Origin: Bacteroidota bacterium
Lineage (GTDB): Bacteria; Bacteroidota; Bacteroidia; 2-12-FULL-35-15
DNA length: 64,000 nucleotides
Assembly: GCA_947504725.1 (NCBI GenBank)
Contig: CANNHN010000004.1
Coordinates: forward strand, 135,203-199,202
Direction: 5' to 3'
Within the stretch, counting starts at the first letter, position 1. Each line of letters opens with the position of its first letter. The notes below the pieces were generated by a model. The model saw nothing but the letters and a program-made list of their open reading frames with translations. It was not told the DNA's origin and ran no database searches. This document shows, in pieces, positions 5,344 to 63,823 of this stretch. Both the position numbers and the translations under genes were made by a program.

Positions 5344-6144
5344 ATGGAAGCAACCGAAACTAAAAGTAAGTATTTGGCAGTGGTATTCACAATAGGATTC
5401 CACGCGTTGCTATTCCTGCTTTTTATTTTAATTGTTTTCGTTACTCCAATTCCTGCTTTTGAAATTAAACCGGTTCCCGAAATTGAAATTGGTTTAGGGA
5501 TGGAAGGGGCTGGAAATACCGCTAGTGGAGGTTCTGGGGAGAATGATCCCAATATTGAAACGAGTATGGAAGCTGCTGTTAGCTCCTCAGAAACTGCTCC
5601 AAATATTATTACTGACGAAACAGAAACGGAAGTTAGCGTAAAAACAAATCCGAATGCAACACCTGAAAGCACTGCTGAAGCATTGAGTCCTGAAGAAAAG
5701 AAAGAACGAGCTGAATTAGAAAAAGCGCTAGCCAAAATTAAAGCGATGAAAGATAAGAAGGGAAAAGGGGATGGAGGAAAAAATACGGGAGGAACAGGAA
5801 ATGGGAATAATACAGGAGTTGGTGATGGTCCAGGAACTGGTATTGGCGATGGAACTCCTGGTGGACCCGGAGGAACGGGTTGGGATTTAAAAGGCCGTTC
5901 TCTTTTGAAAAAACCGGCTAGAATGACTGATTCAGAAGAAGAGGGAATTGTAGTTGTAGAAATTATTGTAAACGAAAATGGAAAAGTAGTAAAAGCAACA
6001 GCAGGTTCTCGGGGGTCAACAACTACCAATGCAAAACTATATTCCAAAGCGAGAAGTGCTGCTTTTGAAGCGAAGTTTAGTCCTAGTCCAGAAGGTATAA
6101 AAGAACAACGTGGAACGTATACATTCGTTTTCACTTTAGAATAA
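5344..6144 (+). CDS. TonB-family protein (second tonB; Gly/Thr-rich linker, C-terminal TonB domain)
   Basis: N-terminal TM segment, a long Gly-rich spacer and the C-terminal GIVVVEIIVNENGKV.. TonB-like fold. Its start lies 2 bp after the exbD stop. Confidence 0.65.
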   Translation: MEATETKSKYLAVVFTIGFHALLFLLFILIVFVTPIPAFEIKPVPEIEIGLGMEGAGNTASGGSGENDPNIETSMEAAVSSSETAPNIITDETETEVSVKTNPNATPESTAEALSPEEKKERAELEKALAKIKAMKDKKGKGDGGKNTGGTGNGNNTGVGDGPGTGIGDGTPGGPGGTGWDLKGRSLLKKPARMTDSEEEGIVVVEIIVNENGKVVKATAGSRGSTTTNAKLYSKARSAAFEAKFSPSPEGIKEQRGTYTFVFTLE

Positions 6145-6206
6145 AATTCAATTACTTTTGTAGAAGTCTTCAATTACAATTTGTGACGTTACTTTATTTA
6201 AACACG

Positions 6207-6288
6207 TCATTGCGAGGAACGAAGCAATCTCTCATGATGAGGACATTCGTCACCATTGAACAGAGATTGCTTCGTTCCTCGCAATGAC
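6207..6288. repeat. Palindromic intergenic repeat, subfamily A (arms gtcattgcgaggaacgaagcaatctct / agagattgcttcgttcctcgcaatgac, approximately 28-nt loop)
   Basis: Near-perfect 27-bp inverted repeat. A second copy lies at 63704..63786. Located between tonB2 and folC. Confidence 0.7.
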
Positions 6289-6334
6289 GGAAGTGAGTTG
6301 CACTTAGCTTAGTCGAACAACACAGGAGTAAATT

Positions 6335-15693: not shown

Positions 15694-15736
15694 TCTCATT
15701 GCAAAAATTTCATCATTAATGATGTGAATATAAAGT

Positions 15737-15789
15737 CTTCGACTCCGCTCAGCCTGACAAACGAATTGTCACACTGAGCGGAGTCGAAG
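15737..15789. repeat. REP-like hairpin repeat, subfamily B (cttcgactccgctcagcctgaca / tgtcacactgagcggagtcgaag)
   Basis: Inverted repeat in the porV-ispF gap. Its arm is identical to sequence inside pdhC and is related to the copies at 36279, 59626, 38538, 32608 and 27051. Confidence 0.7.
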
Positions 15790-15836
15790 TTTTTACGGAG
15801 AGTCTATAATTGATTTCACAAAAGAGATAACAAATT

Positions 15837-36259: not shown

Positions 36260-36278
36260 CTGTTGGCAATAAAAATTT

Positions 36279-36327
36279 CTTGACTTCGTTCGAAATGACA
36301 GTCCGTTGGCATTTCGAACGAAGTCGA
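36279..36327. repeat. REP-like hairpin, subfamily B variant (cttgacttcgttcgaaatg / catttcgaacgaagtcgag)
   Basis: Perfect 13-bp core inverted repeat between the DUF4890-like gene and recG. No T-tract follows it. Confidence 0.65.
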
Positions 36328-36356
36328 GAAATAATTTAGTAAATTCGCATAGAAAT

Positions 36357-38578: not shown

Positions 38579-39817
38579 CTAATTATTAACCGGATACTCC
38601 ACCACCCAATGAAAGCCTCTGTTGAGTAGTGGGTAATTGCTTACATCTACTTTTCTAAGTTGCACGCTGCTGGAATCATTTTCAGAAAGCGTCAAGATGT
38701 TTTCTGAAAAATCATAATTCACAAGTCGCTTGTCTGATTTGTCATTATTTGATTGGAAAGAAATTGTTTTTGAAATGGTATCAACTGTTGCGGTATAATA
38801 ACTATTCAAATCTTCCCATTGAAAGAGTGTGATTTTTTTATCAAAAATAATTTTCTTTAATTTTTTGGCATCTCTACTGTTTGAACCACTGTATTCATAT
38901 ATGCCGTATAATGCTGGTGTCGGAGCGCTATCCCCATCATTTTTCATATTCTCCCAACTATAATGCATGAACAATAATGTAAACGAAACAATAACTCCTG
39001 CCTTGATAATTTTACGAAAGGATTGAATGCGTTGTGGTAAAACAACTTCAGGCTGTTGTGTTAGCTGTGTTACTTTTTGTAATATGAAAAATTGGAAAAT
39101 AGAATTGATAAAAGGATAGAGCAATAGTAAAGCATATCCAACCATGTGCGAAGCAAATAGTTTTACAGGAACATCGTAGCTGAAATTGATAACGGCTACA
39201 TTAATCATAATAATTAAAACTACCAATGCTCCTAGGGCAGTTGTTCTTCTGAATAATAATAAAAACCCAGAAAGAACCTCGGCTATTCCAATGAAAATAG
39301 TATAACTGGTTGAATATCCCATGAATGCCCACAATAAACCTTGAGGAGTCGATTCACCAAATGTTTGTTCTAGTTTTTCTAAAGAAGGAAAAGGAAAGTG
39401 AGACTTAAACATTTTATCAAATCCATATACCAACATGTAAAATCCAATGCAATAGCGGATATAAACAAATAAATAAGATTGTAATTTCTCGTAATTGTTT
39501 CTTTTTTTATCAATAAGTAATACAGCTAAAGCTGTTATAGTTGATAAAATCAGAAAGATGAAAAAACTAGCAAAATCAAATGTTGTATCTCCACTATCTG
39601 AGAATGTTAGTTTTTGGAAATTATGAATATGTAAAATGTTCTTTCCTATCCAAATTACAAATGCATCATTTACTCGTTCATAAATGTTGAAGATAAAATC
39701 AACTTGTGGAAAAGCATCAAAAGGGAAAGGGAAAATATAAAAGTAGGTGTACGACAAAATGAAAAGAAATAGAAATTTCTTTTGAGCGGACCATTGTATT
39801 GTACTGTTGTTTGACAT
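38579..39817 (-). CDS. Hypothetical polytopic membrane protein
   Basis: 412 aa with multiple TM helices and no recognisable motif. Confidence 0.4.
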   Translation of the reverse strand: MSNNSTIQWSAQKKFLFLFILSYTYFYIFPFPFDAFPQVDFIFNIYERVNDAFVIWIGKNILHIHNFQKLTFSDSGDTTFDFASFFIFLILSTITALAVLLIDKKRNNYEKLQSYLFVYIRYCIGFYMLVYGFDKMFKSHFPFPSLEKLEQTFGESTPQGLLWAFMGYSTSYTIFIGIAEVLSGFLLLFRRTTALGALVVLIIMINVAVINFSYDVPVKLFASHMVGYALLLLYPFINSIFQFFILQKVTQLTQQPEVVLPQRIQSFRKIIKAGVIVSFTLLFMHYSWENMKNDGDSAPTPALYGIYEYSGSNSRDAKKLKKIIFDKKITLFQWEDLNSYYTATVDTISKTISFQSNNDKSDKRLVNYDFSENILTLSENDSSSVQLRKVDVSNYPLLNRGFHWVVEYPVNN

Positions 39818-39949
39818 CTATTGGTAAAAGTATTTCAATTAAAATTCATTTCAAAATGTAAGTTTACTTTTCAACAAAATGCTTTAAACTGTTGAAAATA
39901 TTATAAATATTGAGGGTTTACTAACCTTATATTTGTGTAGACTAGTTTT

Positions 39950-40143
39950 TAACACATAGAAACATAGCTATTTTTTCTTGTTAAAAATATAGAGTCAAAT
40001 AAAATAATTAATCATCATAGAAAAATAAATTTTTAAACATAGAGATTGAGTTGTATAGTATAAGCTCTATGTTTGAAGCTTGCTGCAACTATGTTAAATT
40101 ACCTAAATACAAAACACTTAAAAACTATGTGTCTATGTGTTTA
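39950..40143. repeat. MITE-like element, copy 1 (TIRs aacacatagaaacatag ... ctatgtgtctatgtgtt; internal nested inverted repeat aaacatagag/ctctatgttt)
   Basis: 17-18 bp terminal inverted repeats about 175 bp apart. It shares its termini and an internal agcttcaaacatagag motif with copy 2 at 44291..44507. Confidence 0.55.
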
Positions 40144-40180
40144 AAAGCCATGTTGCATTCTTTTAATATCTAAATATCAT

Positions 40181-42442
40181 ATGTCAGAAACTCGCTTTTA
40201 TAAAAAGATAGCATTAAGCTTAAATATCAACGAAAAACAAGTTGATGCAGTTGTTGGATTGTTGGATGATGGAGCTACCATTCCGTTTATTTCCCGTTAT
40301 CGTAAGGAAATGACAGGTAGTTTGGATGAAGTACAAGTTGCGAATGTGCGTGATGAAATTGAACGTTTACGCGTTTTAGAAAAACGCAGAGAATTTATTT
40401 TAGAATCTATTGAAGGTCAAGGTAAATTGACTCCCGAATTAATTTCGTTGATACGATATGCAGAAACTGTTTCAGCATTGGAAGATATTTATTTGCCATT
40501 CAAACCAAAACGCAGAACAAAAGCAACCATTGCGCGTGAAAAAGGATTGGAACCTTTAGCGCAAATAATTTTTGAGCAAGGGAAAGTAGATTTAGAGGAA
40601 GAAGCGGCAAAGTTTATTGCTGAGGATGAATCCACAACACCGAGTGTTGCTACAATAGAAGAAGCACTTTCCGGAGCACGAGATATTGTTGCGGAGTGGA
40701 TCAACGAAAACGCAGAAGCACGAGATAAAATTCGTAATTTATTTAAACGTTCGGCAACTATAAAAAGTAAAGTCTTGAGAGGAAAAGAAGAGGCTGGAGA
40801 AAAATTCAAAGATTATTTTGATTGGGAAGAAAATTTAATGGGTTGTCCGTCTCATAGATTATTGGCTATCCGAAGAGGAGAGAGTGAAGAAATATTAAGT
40901 ATTCACATTATGCCTCCCGAGGATGAAGCGATCGATATTCTTGTGAATCAATTTGTGAAATCAAACAATGCTGCTGCTGCACAAGTGAAATTGGCATGTG
41001 ATGATGCTTACAACCGAATGATGCAAGGTTCGATTGAAACGGAAATGCGCATGATGACAAAAGAACTTGCGGATGAAAAAGCAATTCAGGTTTTTGCTGA
41101 CAATTTAAGAGAGTTGATGTTGGCTTCTCCACTTGGACAAAAAGCAATATTGGCAATTGACCCAGGATTTAGAACAGGTTGCAAAGTGGTGGTGCTTGAC
41201 AAACAAGGAAAATTATTGGATGATACAGTAATCTATCCGCACGAACAAAATAAAATATTCCAAACCAAACAATTGATTTTAGCTTGGTGCGATAAACATA
41301 AAGTTGAAGCGATTGCAATTGGAAATGGAACAGCAGGAAGAGAAACCGAAACATTTATAAGAAGCATTGAAGAACTTCCGAAAAGTATCAATGTAATTAT
41401 GGTGAACGAAAGTGGTGCATCTATTTATTCGGCATCCGATGTGGCGCGTGAAGAATTTGCTGATAAAGACATCACTGTGCGTGGAGCAGTTTCTATTGGA
41501 AGAAGATTGGCAGATCCTTTAGCAGAATTAGTAAAGATTGATGCGAAGTCGATTGGAGTGGGACAATATCAACACGATGTGGATCAATATCTTCTGAAGA
41601 AAAAATTAGATGAAGTTGTTGAGAGTTGTGTAAATAAAGTGGGAGTGGAAGTGAACACAGCCAGTAAACAATTGTTGACATACGTTTCTGGATTGGGTGG
41701 AGTATTGGCAAGAAATATTGTTGAATATAGAAATGAAAACGGTCCGTTCAAATCCAGAAAAGATATTTTGAAAGTTCCGAGAATGGGAGAGAAAGCATAC
41801 GAACAAGCTGCAGGATTCTTGCGCATTGCAAATGGAAAAAATGCCTTGGACAAAAGTGCGGTGCATCCTGAAAGCTATGTTATTGTGGAGAAAATGGCAA
41901 CGGATTTAAATTGCACCATTGAGCAATTAATGACGGAGAAAGAGTTTCGTAAACAAATTTCTTTACAAAAATATGTGACGGAAAAATTTGGTCTGCCTAC
42001 CTTGAATGATATCATGAATGAGTTGGACAAGCCAGGAAGAGATCCACGAAAATCATTTGAAGTATTTAAGTTTGACGACAGCGTGCACGAAATTGCAGAT
42101 TTAAAAGTAGGAATGAAATTGCCAGGAATAGTAACCAACGTAACCAACTTCGGAGCCTTTGTTGATATTGGCGTTCACCAAGACGGATTGGTTCACGTTT
42201 CTCAATTGTCAAACACATTTGTCTCCGACCCTAACACGGTTGTGAAAGTTCAACAGCAAGTAATGGTAACAGTAACGGAAGTAGATGCACAAAGAAAGCG
42301 AATTGCATTATCAATGAAAGACAATGTTGCCAGCGCACCTGTTTCTAAACCTGCTCAAAACAATAATAAAAAAGGAAAACCTGAACCACCTGCAAATGAT
42401 TTTGCTAGTCAGTTGGCGGCTTTGAAGGATAAGTTTAAATAG
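40181..42442 (+). CDS. tex: Transcription accessory protein Tex (YqgF/HhH/S1 domains)
   Basis: 753 aa with a C-terminal S1 domain (GMKLPGIVTNVTNFGAFVDIG) and a conserved Tex N-terminus. Confidence 0.85.
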   Translation: MSETRFYKKIALSLNINEKQVDAVVGLLDDGATIPFISRYRKEMTGSLDEVQVANVRDEIERLRVLEKRREFILESIEGQGKLTPELISLIRYAETVSALEDIYLPFKPKRRTKATIAREKGLEPLAQIIFEQGKVDLEEEAAKFIAEDESTTPSVATIEEALSGARDIVAEWINENAEARDKIRNLFKRSATIKSKVLRGKEEAGEKFKDYFDWEENLMGCPSHRLLAIRRGESEEILSIHIMPPEDEAIDILVNQFVKSNNAAAAQVKLACDDAYNRMMQGSIETEMRMMTKELADEKAIQVFADNLRELMLASPLGQKAILAIDPGFRTGCKVVVLDKQGKLLDDTVIYPHEQNKIFQTKQLILAWCDKHKVEAIAIGNGTAGRETETFIRSIEELPKSINVIMVNESGASIYSASDVAREEFADKDITVRGAVSIGRRLADPLAELVKIDAKSIGVGQYQHDVDQYLLKKKLDEVVESCVNKVGVEVNTASKQLLTYVSGLGGVLARNIVEYRNENGPFKSRKDILKVPRMGEKAYEQAAGFLRIANGKNALDKSAVHPESYVIVEKMATDLNCTIEQLMTEKEFRKQISLQKYVTEKFGLPTLNDIMNELDKPGRDPRKSFEVFKFDDSVHEIADLKVGMKLPGIVTNVTNFGAFVDIGVHQDGLVHVSQLSNTFVSDPNTVVKVQQQVMVTVTEVDAQRKRIALSMKDNVASAPVSKPAQNNNKKGKPEPPANDFASQLAALKDKFK

Positions 42443-42444
42443 TA

Positions 42445-44238
42445 TTAATCCACAATCCCCATTTTCTTCATCAAAAATGAAGCATTCATTGTAGAGCAAA
42501 CGCCTTCAGATAGTTTGTAGTCGAAATTAAGTTTATCATCTTTGATGGTGATTTCAAAACGTAAATTTCTAACTTGATTTGGGAATTGTGCAGAGAGTTT
42601 TGATAATTCCACATCGTGGGTGGCAACAATTCCAACTCCGTTTAATCGTATAATCTTTTTGATGAGTGCTTCCGAACCGGCATGTTGGTCTTTGCTGTTT
42701 GTTCCTTTTAATATTTCATCTAATAAAAAGAAAACCTGCTTCCCTTGCTCGTATTGCTCCGTTAATAAATGAAGTCGTTTTAATTCTGCATAAAAGAAAG
42801 ATTCGTTTTCTTGCAAAGAGTCATTTGTTCTAAGACTTGTAAATAAGTGTATTGGCGAAAATTTGTAACGGCTTGCACAAACCGGTGCTCCAATCATTGC
42901 AATGGTTAGGTTTACGCCTATCGTTCTCAGGAATGTGCTTTTCCCAGCCATGTTTGCACCCGTTAGTAAATCCACTTTTGGTGCGTGTGAAATGTTGTAA
43001 TTATTTTTCACTAAAACATTTTCTTGAATAAGTGGATGTCCTAAGTTTTCTGCTTCAATTCTAAAATGATTTGTTTCCACCTCCGGGAAAACATAAGAAG
43101 GATTATTATGTGCATACATTCCTAAACTAATAAATGCATCAAATTCTCCAATAGCATCCACCCATTTCATAAAATGATCTTTGTTCTTTTTTCTCCAATT
43201 TTCAATGCCACACATCACGTTAATGTCCCAAAGTAAAATTCCGTTTAGTAAAACAGCTACCACAATGTTCATGCGCGCATCCAGCTTGTCGGTTAAGCTT
43301 TTAAGCTCTTTGATGTTGTCGCTAGCGGATGTATTCTCGTTTACAAAGGCAGCTTTTAATTTGATTAAGAGATCGGATTTAAATGACTCCTTTTCAATCA
43401 AAGAAATTAACTGACGGTATTTCTCTATGGAATCAAACTTGCGACTTAAATTATCGTGAATTTTATTGATGCGTTTAGTGTACGCACCAATGATCCCAAG
43501 CTGAATAAAAAATAAAAGTGTGAACGGTGTTTCGTTGATGATTCCAATGAAATAGAGCACAATAGCGGTGATAGATAAAATTGGAAAAAGAACACAAGAG
43601 ATTTTTAAAAACAAAGTAGAGAAAGTGTTTTTCTCATTCAACCATTCTTCAATTACTTCTTTGTCTTTTGCCTGTTCTTTATTTTGAAATCCCAATGCAA
43701 TAAATTCGTGATTCCATTCAGGCTTTGCCGACAATTCTTTTATCGCTTCCTGACGAGCAACAATTGTTGCTTTATCCATAAAAGGATAAGTCAGCCATTG
43801 TGCCAGTTTTATTCTACCCGTATAAGTTGAAGTCCGGTTTAAAATTTGAAAAATAGATTTTCTCCCAAAAATATCTAAGTCGGAAATAAAGTGATGTTGT
43901 TTATCAATAAACTCTGTTCCTTCATTTATTCCATTAAAATCTTTTTTCAAAAGTTGGATTTCAATTTCATTGACTTTGATTAGATTTTTTAAAAAACTTG
44001 TTTTTCTTTTTAGCTTGAGTTCCATGCTCAATAAAAAAAGAAAAAGAACAACGGTTATTCCAGCAAACGAATACGCAAAAACAGCTTGTGTTTTATAGAA
44101 AAAAATAAAGAGAACAAGAGCTAAAAGGAATAATAGAATTCGGGAATAGAAGATCTTGTTGAATTTACTATTCTGTTCATCAATTTCCTTGTTGAACTCG
44201 GATATTCTGTTTGTGTAGTATGTTAATAAGGTATTCAT
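42445..44238 (-). CDS. MutS-family ATPase (MutS2-like, domain V only; no Smr domain seen)
   Basis: Walker A GANMAGKST and Walker B LLDEILKGTN with N-terminal TM helices. I chose the ATG at 44238 over the TTG at 44247. Confidence 0.7.
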   Translation of the reverse strand: MNTLLTYYTNRISEFNKEIDEQNSKFNKIFYSRILLFLLALVLFIFFYKTQAVFAYSFAGITVVLFLFLLSMELKLKRKTSFLKNLIKVNEIEIQLLKKDFNGINEGTEFIDKQHHFISDLDIFGRKSIFQILNRTSTYTGRIKLAQWLTYPFMDKATIVARQEAIKELSAKPEWNHEFIALGFQNKEQAKDKEVIEEWLNEKNTFSTLFLKISCVLFPILSITAIVLYFIGIINETPFTLLFFIQLGIIGAYTKRINKIHDNLSRKFDSIEKYRQLISLIEKESFKSDLLIKLKAAFVNENTSASDNIKELKSLTDKLDARMNIVVAVLLNGILLWDINVMCGIENWRKKNKDHFMKWVDAIGEFDAFISLGMYAHNNPSYVFPEVETNHFRIEAENLGHPLIQENVLVKNNYNISHAPKVDLLTGANMAGKSTFLRTIGVNLTIAMIGAPVCASRYKFSPIHLFTSLRTNDSLQENESFFYAELKRLHLLTEQYEQGKQVFFLLDEILKGTNSKDQHAGSEALIKKIIRLNGVGIVATHDVELSKLSAQFPNQVRNLRFEITIKDDKLNFDYKLSEGVCSTMNASFLMKKMGIVD

Positions 44239-44290
44239 GGGGAGCAAAGCTACGTAAATAATGTAATTGTGCTTCTATTCATGGTAATTT

Positions 44291-44507
44291 AAACACATAG
44301 ACACATAGCTTTTTTGTTTGTTCTGGCTATGGTGTTCGTTCTGTTCATTTATATTATTCGTAATGTGTTTAATTCGTTTTGTTTGACGTGTTTTTTATAG
44401 GTTGAAACAAGCTTCAAACATAGAGATATGTCTCTGTAAAAAATTTATTTTTCTATCCTTTTTCTTTTCCTTTTACATACCCAGCAAATCTATGTGTCTA
44501 TGTGTTT
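44291..44507. repeat. MITE-like element, copy 2 (TIRs aacacatagacacatag ... ctatgtgtctatgtgtt)
   Basis: Perfect 17-bp terminal inverted repeat about 200 bp apart, in the same orientation as copy 1. Confidence 0.55.
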
Positions 44508-44598
44508 AAAATGGCGTTAACATTGGCTAGCACGAGGATGCCTTTTACTACGATTTATTTCTTATTTTTGTACCTATTCAAAGGATACAAATAGAACA

Positions 44599-47043
44599 AT
44601 GAAAATATCATATAACTGGCTTAAAGAATACATTAAAACCGACTTATCACCTGATGAGCTTGGGATATTATTGACCGATTGTGGATTGGAAGTAGAGAGT
44701 ATTGAAAAATTCGAAACGGTAAAAGGCGGATTGAAGGGAATTGTAATCGGAGAAGTTAAGACCAAAGAAAAACATCCCGATGCTGATAAGTTGAATTTAA
44801 CAACGGTGGATGTTGGAACGGGAACGTTATTGAATGTTGTTTGTGGGGCAGCAAATGTGGAAGCCGGACAAAAAGTGGTGATTGCAACTATTGGGGCAAT
44901 GCTTTATCCAACAAAAGGAGAGCCGTTCGAAATCAAAAAAGCAAAAATTCGCGGAAAAGAATCTGAAGGAATGATTTGTGCGGAAGATGAAATTGGATTG
45001 GGAACGTCACACGCAGGTATTATGGTGTTGGATGCGGATGCGAAAATTGGAACGCCAGCTAATGAATTTTTTAAGATAGAAGAAGATTATACGTTCGAAA
45101 TAGGATTAACACCAAACCGAGCAGACGCAACTTCCCATGTGGGTGTTGCCCGTGATTTGGTTGCGATATTAAATGCAAAAGCCGTTGCAATGTCGCATGA
45201 ATTAACATTGCCAGATGAACGTCTTTTCAAAGTAGATGAAACAACTTCTAAAATTGAAGTAGTTGTGGAAGATGCTATTGCTTGTCCGCGTTACTCCGGA
45301 TTATCCATTTCAAATATTACTGTACAAGATTCACCAGATTGGTTAAAAAATAAATTGAAAGCAATTGGACTTCGTCCGATTAACAACATTGTGGATGCTA
45401 CCAATTATGTATTGCACGAATTGGGTCAGCCGATGCATGCTTTTGATGCTGATAAAATTAAAGGTGGGAAAGTGATTGTAAAAAAGTTAGCTGATAAAAC
45501 GAAATTCAAAACATTGGATGAAACGGAAAGGGAATTATCTTCCGAAGATTTAATGATTTGCGATAGTAAAGGCGGAATGTGTATTGCGGGAGTGTTTGGT
45601 GGAATTGAATCAGGAGTAACTGCAGAAACAAAAAATATTTTCTTAGAAAGCGCTTATTTTAATGCTTCTTCGGTAAGAAAGTCTTCTAAACGTCACGGAT
45701 TAAAAACAGATGCTTCTTTCCGTTACGAAAGAGGAGCAGATCCGAACATTACAGTGTATGCATTAAAGCATGCAGCAATGTTGATTAAAGAAATTGCAGG
45801 TGGAAAAGTTTCATCAGAGATTATTGATATTTATCCTACACCAATTGAAAATTTCAAAGTTCCGTTTTCATTTGAAAAATGTGAACAGTTGATTGGTAAA
45901 AAAATCGATTTTGAATTAGTGAAAATTATTATCACTTCCTTAGGAATTGAAATCGAACACGAAGGAAATGATGCGCTGTTGTTGTCTGTTCCGCCATTCA
46001 AGGTAGATGTTACGCGTGAACAAGATGTGATTGAAGAAGTATTGCGTATTTATGGATACAACAATGTTGAAATTCCATCGATATTAAATTCTTCTTTATC
46101 GTTTGCAGAAAAACCAGACAAAGAAAAACTTCAAAACGTGGTTTCGGAACTATTGACTAACAATGGTTTTTCGGAAATGATGTGTTTGTCGTTGACAAAA
46201 GGAGAATATGCTACAAAGCTAAGTTCATTGAGTGAAGATAGAAGTGTGGCGATGATGAATCCTTTGAGCAGTGATTTGAATGTATTGCGTCAAACATTAT
46301 TGTTCAGCGGATTAGAAACCATTGCGTATAATCAAAATCGTAAAAATGCTGATTTGAAAGTATATGAATTTGGTAAGACATACATCGCTGTTAAAGGTGA
46401 ATCAACGAAATACATTGAAACAAAACATTTATCTGTTTTTATAACTGGTCGCAAACAAGAAGAAAGCTGGAATGCTAATAACGATGGAATGAACTTTTAT
46501 ACTTTAAAAGGAATTGTAAAAAACATTATTGAGCGCTTGGGAATAAAAGATGTGAAGTTGGCTGAATTGAATTCGGACACTTTTTCACAAGGATTGGCAT
46601 TTAACTGGAACAAAAAGTTGTTGGTTGAGTTTGGAGAAGTTGCAAAACCCATTTCATCAAAATTGATGGATATTAAATTACCAGTTTATTTTGCAGATTT
46701 TAATTGGGATTTAGTTCTAGAGGCGATTAAAAAATCAGCTACAATGTATACTGAAGTCTCTAAATTTCCTGAAGTTAGAAGAGATTTGGCACTATTGATT
46801 GATCAGATGATTCAATTTGAGCAGCTGGAACAATTGGCATATCAAGCAGAGAAAAATATTTTGAAAGATGTGAATTTGTTTGATGTCTACCAAGGTGATA
46901 AATTACCAACTGGTAAAAAATCGTATGCTTTGAGTTTTATTTTACAAGATGAAAATGCAACTCTTACAGATAAACAAATTGAAAAAATTATGGAGAAGTT
47001 GATGAAGACATATCAAGAAAAGGTTGGGGCGGAAATAAGATAA
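44599..47043 (+). CDS. pheT: Phenylalanine--tRNA ligase beta subunit
   Basis: MKISYNWLKEYI N-terminus, tRNA-binding domain, and B3/4 and B5 domains. 814 aa. Confidence 0.9.
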   Translation: MKISYNWLKEYIKTDLSPDELGILLTDCGLEVESIEKFETVKGGLKGIVIGEVKTKEKHPDADKLNLTTVDVGTGTLLNVVCGAANVEAGQKVVIATIGAMLYPTKGEPFEIKKAKIRGKESEGMICAEDEIGLGTSHAGIMVLDADAKIGTPANEFFKIEEDYTFEIGLTPNRADATSHVGVARDLVAILNAKAVAMSHELTLPDERLFKVDETTSKIEVVVEDAIACPRYSGLSISNITVQDSPDWLKNKLKAIGLRPINNIVDATNYVLHELGQPMHAFDADKIKGGKVIVKKLADKTKFKTLDETERELSSEDLMICDSKGGMCIAGVFGGIESGVTAETKNIFLESAYFNASSVRKSSKRHGLKTDASFRYERGADPNITVYALKHAAMLIKEIAGGKVSSEIIDIYPTPIENFKVPFSFEKCEQLIGKKIDFELVKIIITSLGIEIEHEGNDALLLSVPPFKVDVTREQDVIEEVLRIYGYNNVEIPSILNSSLSFAEKPDKEKLQNVVSELLTNNGFSEMMCLSLTKGEYATKLSSLSEDRSVAMMNPLSSDLNVLRQTLLFSGLETIAYNQNRKNADLKVYEFGKTYIAVKGESTKYIETKHLSVFITGRKQEESWNANNDGMNFYTLKGIVKNIIERLGIKDVKLAELNSDTFSQGLAFNWNKKLLVEFGEVAKPISSKLMDIKLPVYFADFNWDLVLEAIKKSATMYTEVSKFPEVRRDLALLIDQMIQFEQLEQLAYQAEKNILKDVNLFDVYQGDKLPTGKKSYALSFILQDENATLTDKQIEKIMEKLMKTYQEKVGAEIR

Positions 47044-63566: not shown

Positions 63567-63703
63567 GATTTTTATGAATTTTAGTCGTGCAATTCTTATT
63601 CCCGAAAGATAAAAGGATTTTGTGAGAATAAAAACAATCTTACATGAAATTTATATGAAATTGTTTTAAAGGAGCAATATTCTATGATACTTTCGATTAG
63701 AAC

Positions 63704-63786
63704 GTCATTGCGAGGAACGAAGCAATCTCTCCATATTTGTGGCGCATCAGCCATTCATGAGAGACTGCTTCGTTCCTCGCAGTGAC
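63704..63786. repeat. Palindromic intergenic repeat, subfamily A, copy 2 (gtcattgcgaggaacgaagcaatctctc / gagagactgcttcgttcctcgcagtgac)
   Basis: Second copy of the 6207..6288 element. It lies 3' of eno and upstream of gltA. Confidence 0.7.
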
Positions 63787-63823
63787 GCTTTTGATAGGCC
63801 TTTTCCTTAAGCTAAGGCTTCAA

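Follow-up and report, generated by a model that had tools for sequence, protein, structure and literature searches.

Two divergent intergenic regions bracket tex and a mutS-like gene in a Bacteroidota bacterium (contig CANNHN010000004.1, positions 135,203 to 199,202; this whole stretch of 64 kb is referred to as the window), and each contains a segment of about 200 bp with inverted ends. What are these segments, and what do they do to the genes beside them? A reading made without database searches (the sequence-only reading) had proposed a miniature transposable element with inverted repeats (MITE) or, alternatively, a cis-regulatory module shared by tex, the mutS-like gene, pheT and a membrane-protein gene, and had seen in the two copies a possible substrate for deletion or inversion of the tex-mutS segment. 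According to our analysis, both copies are probably non-autonomous, non-coding palindromic insertions, resembling MITEs or REPINs (doublets of repetitive extragenic palindromic, REP, units), which belong to a family found across the Bacteroidota.

The terminal inverted repeats were confirmed. When the 17-mer AACACATAGACACATAG was searched in the window with at most one mismatch, four sites were found, versus 0.24 expected from 100 dinucleotide-preserving shuffles, none of which reached four. These sites form two inverted pairs, one per element (Table 1). Every terminus consists of two tandem ACACATAG octamers, inverted at opposite ends, which accounts for the recurring CATAG half-sites noticed earlier; the overall plan is two octamers, a central inverted pair and two inverted octamers. 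Both copies are located, as described before, in divergent intergenic regions (DoxX-like/tex and mutS-like/pheT), and no open reading frame (ORF) of at least 80 aa overlaps either of them.

The shared internal motif was also found, with one exact match to AGCTTCAAACATAGAG in each copy (40065-40080, minus strand, in copy 1; 44410-44425, plus strand, in copy 2). Because the terminal repeats are symmetric, they carry no information on orientation; the interiors do, and both AGCTTCAAACATAGAG and the inner motif ATAGAAAAATAAATTTTT lie on opposite strands, which means that the copies are mutually inverted and not in the same orientation, as had been supposed. The motif ATAGAAAAATAAATTTTT recurs in three other loci (L056, L152 and L158; L numbers designate loci retrieved from other assemblies). 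Except for the termini and some 60 nt of core sequence, the two interiors could not be aligned in either orientation. Thus, the idea of two copies of one 200-bp element holds for the ends and the core, and overstates the similarity of the remainder.

Structure prediction showed that a single strand, either RNA or DNA, can close into a stem of 21-27 bp around a fast-evolving interior that carries a smaller central hairpin. The predicted RNA folds of copy 1 (-39.5 kcal/mol, z = -2.96) and copy 2 (-54.8 kcal/mol, z = -5.84) both closed on the terminal arms, and this terminal stem dominated both structures. The central hairpin of copy 1, a 14-bp stem in both the minimum free energy (MFE) and centroid structures, has its analogue in the ACACATAG/CTATGTGT palindrome at the centre of a Flavobacterium subfamily described below. 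Rfam covariance models run over 39700-44700 gave nothing near the gathering score (best hits with E ≥ 3.4). No further copy was present in an additional 19 kb of the same genome, leaving two copies only in 83 kb.

To place the elements in a wider context, the 17-mer AACACATAGACACATAG was scanned against one genome per species (596 Gb), which gave at least 120 loci. Among the matches listed, 118 of the 120 loci belonged to Bacteroidota, the other two being single sites in genomes from outside this phylum. By itself the count says little, since by our own arithmetic a 17-mer is expected about 100 times in 596 Gb. About 100 inverted pairs were present among the listed matches, with an inter-arm spacing peak of 98-105 bp in Flavobacterium. 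The 17-nt tandem-octamer terminus bounds short intergenic hairpins in Flavobacteriales, Chitinophagales, Saprospiraceae and Bacteroidales lineages; short perfect hairpins with three octamers per arm were found in Prolixibacteraceae, Saprospiraceae and Dysgonomonadaceae, and the element of a Chitinophaga metagenome-assembled genome (MAG; L056) has its inner motif in common with the window. None of the 97 listed elements overlapped an ORF. They were located between tandem (64), convergent (16) or divergent genes (7, including the two of the window), and most started 6-50 bp past a stop codon. In the approximately 100 listed members, the left flank was T-rich and the right flank A-rich, prolonging the palindrome, with no constant duplication.

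The window elements are therefore members of a Bacteroidota-wide tandem-octamer hairpin family, for which literature searches by sequence strings and on Flavobacterium repeats, GxxExxY, PF13366 and TIGR02436 found no description. All-against-all clustering of 774 ORFs returned only common Bacteroidota families as recurrent neighbours, and no transposase or recombinase. An Rfam search of 14 element-rich loci gave no hit on the elements; its sole hit was an unrelated Flavo-1 RNA (RF01705, 65.5 bits) in Flavobacterium frigoritolerans (L059, 5150-5237). Viral carriage was also considered and rejected, the five matches in viral contigs being single, unpaired and at chance level.

In the Flavobacterium subfamily, the consensus comprises a left terminus, a box AAAGGCGTTTCACTTG, the central ACACATAG/CTATGTGT hairpin, a second small palindrome, whose pairing is kept through compensatory changes, and a right terminus. 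This second palindrome was assessed as a candidate intrinsic terminator: its stems were very weak (mean MFE of -2.2 versus -1.2 kcal/mol for shuffles), with a T-run after 22 of 54. The interior was more often antisense than sense to the flanking tandem genes (35 and 12 of 47, respectively; p = 0.001). In six loci (L034, L101, L074, L025, L040 and L009), other repeats were nested exactly at the central palindrome. Elements of this subfamily, about 135 bp long, may be closely packed, as in L104, where 8 kb contain four copies. The window itself contains other intergenic palindromic repeats, namely CGTCATTGCGAGGAACGAAGCAATCTCT with its complement, found twice (6205-6289 and 63703-63787), and two related GTCA...CGAA-type hairpins (15731-15795 and 36275-36332). 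Repeats similar to these are among those nested in Flavobacterium CATAG elements, and were also observed at contig ends after mutS in L152, L153 and L155.

To determine how the same two sites are occupied in relatives, metagenome and assembly loci were gathered by MutS and Tex similarity. The tex site was filled in the window and in L157 (Tex 94% identical), whose orthologous element is shorter and in the same orientation, and was empty in the closest relative, L156 (Tex 97%), as well as in L123, L124 and L158. At the pheT-mutS site, a CATAG-type element with a single internal orientation was found in six lineages (the window, L155, L153/L154, L152, L158 and L126), with MutS identities from 95% down to 71%; this copy is therefore old. 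Three relatives (L123, L124 and L127) had at this site a sibling element with CACAGATT-CACAGATT termini, whose right arm abuts the pheT -7 box in L123 and L124, and two (L131 and L130) had none. In the six-way alignment of the pheT-mutS site, conservation of the termini was similar to that of the promoter boxes of mutS and pheT, the interior fell into two variants and the flanks drifted. Overall, these comparisons show that elements are gained, lost and replaced in AT-rich intergenic DNA and, once inserted, can be inherited vertically for long periods, with termini conserved like core promoters while interior and flanks decay.

Some relatives exhibited further peculiarities. In the copy 2 orthologue of L153 (~5700-5990) and L154 (1-325), both arms are broken at mirror-image positions by inserts of about 28 bp, which are mutual reverse complements (23/28), like two halves of another palindromic repeat. 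As such mirror-image inserts could not be produced by one insertion, they suggest either templated copying from one arm to the other or a history of nested hairpins. In the window, 2 bp separate the ends of the convergent tex and mutS-like genes (42442-42445); in relatives, the gap holds 0.15-2.3 kb of variable DNA, including Por_Secre_tail proteins (cargo of the type IX secretion system, T9SS) or a large membrane protein. An additional LVIVD/Por_Secre_tail gene lies between the DoxX-like gene and tex in L156, and gliding and T9SS genes are present on the same contig as the window. A metagenome contig in ENA was 100% identical to the window. The order pheT-mutS-(variable)-tex was constant in every relative examined; recombination between the two copies has left no sign in this gene order, and the proposed deletion or inversion of the tex-mutS segment was not borne out.

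As Bacteroidota promoters differ from sigma-70 promoters, the Bacteroidota -7 consensus TAnnTTTG was used to locate promoter boxes. In the window, 21 of its 98 matches were intergenic, while intergenic DNA represents 8% of the sequence, and a common position was 5-45 nt before a start codon. The -7 boxes of tex, mutS and pheT all lie outside the elements. The distance from the tex box to the ATG is 16 nt in L124 and 31 nt in L158, both devoid of a tex-side element; in L157, TATCTTTG occupies this position, with the element downstream of the box as in the window. At the mutS-like box, GCAAAGCTACGTAA was invariant in six relatives, and its distance of only 6 nt from the start codon (44238-44252) suggests a leaderless or nearly leaderless mRNA. 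The pheT box was kept in relatives with or without an element. Judging from these positions, the insertion of copy 1 would have taken place about 10 nt past the -7 box of tex, whose mRNA would then either carry the whole hairpin in a leader of about 240 nt or start at the element's own TAnnTTTG-like box. Copy 2 lies between the mutS and pheT core promoters and would leave both intact. The box in question, TATGTTTG, fits TAnnTTTG in both copies, facing tex in copy 1 and mutS in copy 2; because this match is not conserved in L126 or L056, a promoter function in copy 1 is a possibility only.

Table 1. Features of the two elements, of their neighbourhood and of related loci. Positions are those of the window unless a locus is given.
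Feature	Position	Strand	Description
Element copy 1	39946..40146	.	201 bp, between ancestral tex -7 box and tex start codon; inverted arms
Copy 1 left terminus	39951..39967	+	tandem octamers AACACATAG-AAACATAG; 1 mismatch to the 17-mer
Copy 1 right terminus	40125..40141	-	reads CTATGTGTCTATGTGTT on the plus strand; 0 mismatches
Copy 1 arms with flanking TTTAAA/A-T runs	39946-39972 / 40120-40146		27 nt, 85% complementary
Copy 1 inner motif ATAGAAAAATAAATTTTT	40017..40034	+	100% complementary to 44439-44456 of copy 2
Copy 1 central hairpin	40032..40077	.	arms AAACATAGAG / CTCTATGTTT, 14-nt loop
TATGTTTG inside copy 1	40068..40075	+	fits TAnnTTTG; faces tex, 105 nt before ATG
Element copy 2	44288..44510	.	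223 bp, between divergent mutS-like and pheT core promoters; inverted arms
Copy 2 left terminus AACACATAGACACATAG	44292..44308	+	0 mismatches
Copy 2 right terminus	44490..44506	-	0 mismatches
Copy 2 arms with flanking A/T	44288-44312 / 44486-44510		25 nt, 96% complementary
Copy 2 conserved core	44410..44456	+	AGCTTCAAACATAGAG, degenerate central hairpin, then AAAAATTTATTTTTCTAT; reverse complement of copy 1 core
Ancestral tex -7 box TATATTTG	39928..39935	+	now 245 nt from ATG, copy 1 in between
mutS-like -7 box TAGCTTTG	44245..44252	-	outside copy 2, 6 nt before start at 44238
pheT -7 box TATTTTTG	44563..44570	+	outside copy 2, 28 nt before ATG at 44599
DoxX-like membrane protein gene	38579-39817	-	left neighbour of copy 1
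tex	40181-42442	+	right neighbour of copy 1
MutS_III/MutS_V (mutS-like) gene	42445-44238	-	left neighbour of copy 2
pheT	44599-47043	+	right neighbour of copy 2
Sibling element at pheT-mutS site	L123 3829-3975; L124 3791-3975; L127 3813-3930		termini GCCACAGATTCACAGATT / AATCTGTGAATCTGTGGC, tandem CACAGATT octamers
Variable tex/mutS gap	L123 5794-6900; L125 1861-3838; L131 5795-7624; L127 5784-8050; L130 4917-7241; L156 5263-7149		
Flavobacterium subfamily copies	L104 2301-2433, 3862-3994, 4764-4895, 7733-7870		
GxxExxY gene in CATAG element	L058 1616-2219; L095 24-624; L115 5064-5659		
GxxExxY gene, Bacteroides finegoldii	L139		inverted arms, three CACAGAGGA units
GxxExxY gene, Bernardetia	L140		inverted arms of CACAGAGA units
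GxxExxY gene, Persicobacter	L141		no repeats
GxxExxY gene, Prevotella	L142		direct repeats with ACAAATAG octamers
GxxExxY gene, Gemmatirosa	L143		hairpin of CGCAGAGGA units (tandem nonamers), directly downstream of gene
GxxExxY gene, Sphingomonas	L144		tandem repeats, upstream only
GxxExxY gene, Treponema	L145		CACACGGATTCG inverted repeat
GxxExxY gene, a Fusobacteria bacterium	L146		direct repeats
Four-helix-bundle gene (TIGR02436, '23S rRNA intervening sequence protein')	L053 831-1330		flanking inverted tandem-nonamer arms, GTTCAAAGGTGCAGAGGGGCAAAGGTTCAGAG and complement

Could the resemblance be a coincidence of AT-rich promoter regions with repeated, degenerate -7-like boxes and no common origin? 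The octamer CTATGTTT does resemble TAnnTTTG, and the chance expectation of the 17-mer, together with the two single non-Bacteroidota sites, would fit such a view. However, the two inverted pairs of the window, the approximately 100 listed pairs with a preferred spacing in one phylum and the retention of orthologous elements in relatives refute it, and we give it practically no weight. It is also very unlikely that the elements are invertons, in which a site-specific recombinase would flip a segment of about 160-180 bp and redirect the inner TAnnTTTG to tex or the DoxX-like gene (copy 1) and to mutS or pheT (copy 2). Size and architecture are appropriate, with inverted repeats of 21-27 bp around 150-180 bp between divergent genes and a perfect TAnnTTTG in the shared inner motif, and are similar to those of Bacteroidota invertons (e.g., the B. 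fragilis capsule promoters, Mpi), which have inverted repeats of about 20-25 bp, an intergenic segment of about 170-200 bp and a TAnnTTTG-like box inside. In contrast to invertons, CATAG elements were never found in both orientations at an orthologous site (0 flips in about 18 comparisons: six lineages at the pheT-mutS site, two at the tex site and ten Flavobacterium pairs), and two independent assemblies (L001 and L002) were identical to the window. No invertase gene lies nearby, and no recombinase Pfam family was detected in the genes called near the locus and at the two ends of the window. Moreover, tex, mutS and pheT each keep a conserved external -7 box, the inner match is not conserved in L126 or L056, and most family members lie downstream of genes. 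The copies are neither locus-specific operators nor, as far as seen, invertible switches.

A host function deserves more attention, the tandem-octamer dyads being then operators of a conserved Bacteroidota DNA-binding protein, possibly looping about 200 bp, and kept for regulation or as insulators. In agreement with this, the pheT-mutS termini match core promoters in conservation, even in relatives with 71% MutS identity, despite the decay of the interior, the two termini of copy 2 are each located upstream of one divergent -7 box, at a distance of about 40-60 bp, and the octamer sequence is conserved across orders. Nevertheless, the closest relative lacks the tex-site copy, the pheT-mutS site holds another octamer family or nothing at all in five relatives, the family neighbours are unrelated genes, with elements mostly after stop codons, and other repeats are nested inside Flavobacterium copies. 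We consider this explanation unlikely, although the conserved termini at a fixed locus may reflect some host-level function. The narrower proposal of a regulatory module common to tex, mutS, pheT and the membrane-protein gene fares no better, given the external -7 boxes, the four relatives lacking the tex-side element and the unrelated genes beside the family elsewhere; neither window copy looks like a dedicated regulator. The pattern that had been expected of a conserved regulatory site was found in part, with two copies only in 83 kb and no target-site duplication, one site being conserved in relatives and the other polymorphic. If the elements are mobile, they might be mobilised by a REP-associated tyrosine (Y1/HUH) transposase (RAYT) acting on a single-stranded hairpin, with GxxExxY genes, described below, as incidental cargo or secondary insertions into loops. 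The absence of target duplication, the doublets of conserved arms that form a hairpin around a variable spacer, the preference for 3' ends of genes, the long vertical persistence, the orientation bias in Flavobacterium and the insertion of other repeats exactly at hairpin centres would all be consistent with this. CATAG elements indeed resemble REPINs in their two conserved inverted units, variable spacer, hairpin and lack of target duplication, as well as in their extragenic location, often at 3' ends of genes, their vertical persistence at orthologous sites and the existence of sibling families in related genomes. They differ in that the arm AACACATAGACACATAG is a direct tandem octamer repeat without self-complementarity, and not an imperfect palindrome with a GTAG head, and in their long spacer (100-180 bp); no RAYT or other Y1 transposase gene was seen beside any element in the fetched loci, where no systematic search for one was made. 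On balance, this mechanism appears rather improbable. To our knowledge, REP/RAYT-type systems have not been characterised in the phylum Bacteroidota.

The reading that we favour, a mobile palindromic element, fits the gain, loss and replacement of elements, their confinement to intergenic DNA, the insertions nested within them and the existence of sibling families. The tandem octamers would be the recognition sites of a trans-acting protein, which would mobilise or maintain the element without target duplication. As for the label MITE, the elements are short, non-coding and bounded by terminal inverted repeats, vary in presence at a site between close relatives and have about 100 related copies in the Bacteroidota; target-site duplications and an autonomous insertion sequence (IS) with the same ends were not found. 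The same holds in comparison with known MITEs such as the Correia elements of Neisseria (CREE/NEMIS). These are likewise non-coding (100-230 bp, bounded by inverted repeats of about 20-26 bp), intergenic and variably present between relatives, can form a long RNA stem and place promoter-like boxes beside genes. Unlike them, CATAG elements lack a target-site duplication, of TA or any other sequence, as well as a parent IS sharing their ends, their termini are tandem octamers conserved across several orders of the phylum and not in one genus, and orthologous copies keep their ends for long periods. MITE-like is therefore the right neighbourhood, with an incomplete fit: the elements depart from a classic MITE because there is no target duplication and no parent IS, and from a REPIN because the arms are not palindromes themselves.

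Several observations weigh against this favoured reading. No clean empty site was found at either locus in relatives, as the flanks were too diverged to define junctions, and there was no target-site duplication at either copy, nor a consistent one among the approximately 100 listed family members. Among the called genes in 83 kb of the genome, there was no transposase, recombinase, GxxExxY or four-helix-bundle gene, and the 120 listed loci included no longer element with these termini. Such long-lasting conservation of element ends at one fixed locus would not be expected from a decaying selfish MITE, and could instead reflect a host function. All effects on tex, mutS and pheT expression are deduced from position. 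Finally, the presence of a GxxExxY gene in a CATAG element, to which we now turn, represents one orthologous event within Flavobacterium. A possible GxxExxY remnant in the window copies (8-12-aa match, HRKINF / KE..RKINF; E of 0.01-0.05 in a 445-nt database) was not significant.

Where the trans-acting protein would come from may be suggested by these cassettes. In three orthologous Flavobacterium loci (L058, L095 and L115), the central hairpin of a CATAG element is the exact site of a 136-aa GxxExxY ORF (PF13366, TIGR04256), and a second GxxExxY gene among the loci (L029, 4240-4780) is enclosed by inverted repeats of the CACGAATT type. Eight GxxExxY genes carried on plasmids (L139-L146) were sampled without bias: inverted CAC(A/G)-type repeats were found at four (L139, L140 and L145 flanked; L143 with a downstream hairpin) and tandem or direct repeats of the same style at three (L142, L144 and L146). 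A four-helix-bundle gene (L053) is flanked in a similar manner, and the arm plan of tandem 8-9-mers is common to the window elements, L139, L140, L143, L029 and L053. As a control, 444 ORFs of 90-400 aa from the loci were examined for flanking inverted repeats of at least 17 matches. Only five had them: two GxxExxY genes, one TIGR02436 four-helix-bundle gene, a gene with a separate CATAG element on either side (L104) and the gene of ribosomal protein S9 (L106). The latter, from a Pyrinomonadaceae MAG (~1150-1860), is flanked by inverted, tandem-octamer-like TTTAATGGTGAATGGTGA and may be a chance case.

The preferred candidate source of this trans-acting protein would be an ORF-bearing form of the same architecture, with a GxxExxY PD-(D/E)XK nuclease gene or a four-helix-bundle gene in the hairpin loop, from which the short elements would be deletion derivatives. 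The two groups are alike in that inverted arms of 2-4 tandem CAC(A/G)-type 8-9-mers enclose a loop, and differ in that the window elements have no ORF, the derivation of short from ORF-bearing forms being inferred. No GxxExxY or TIGR02436 ORF was present in either window copy or in the 83 kb of genome, and an 18-mer DNA match between the window inner motif and a GxxExxY coding sequence was discarded as not significant, having chance-level companions. Taken together, the comparisons suggest that the short elements may be ORF-less derivatives of nuclease-bearing hairpin cassettes. A broader proposal, which we regard as doubtful though conceivable, is that CATAG elements are ORF-less members of an undescribed set of hairpin cassettes spanning several phyla, with arms of CAC(A/G)NNNN 8-9-mers and full forms carrying a GxxExxY nuclease or a '23S rRNA intervening sequence' protein; the product of the enclosed gene would recognise the arms or the extruded hairpin or cruciform, and drive spread, replacement and arm-to-arm homogenisation. 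The function of PF13366 (PDDEXK_3, GxxExxY family) is given as 'Unknown' in a survey (PMC3424549), and our literature searches found no functional study of the GxxExxY or TIGR02436 family.

For the locus itself, the result is modest: one insertion now stands between the promoter and the start codon of tex, and another, which is old, between the promoters of the mutS-like gene and pheT. The wider interest lies in the family, with sibling octamer variants at the same site in relatives, ends that persist at orthologous loci like promoters, and the same architecture enclosing GxxExxY and four-helix-bundle genes across several phyla. If the link to these cassettes is real, it offers a testable hypothesis for two abundant orphan protein families, and a new model of how palindromic elements are maintained. 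The cassette reading, if true, would provide two large, functionally uncharacterised families with their first assigned role, and would account for the lasting conservation of the termini at fixed loci.

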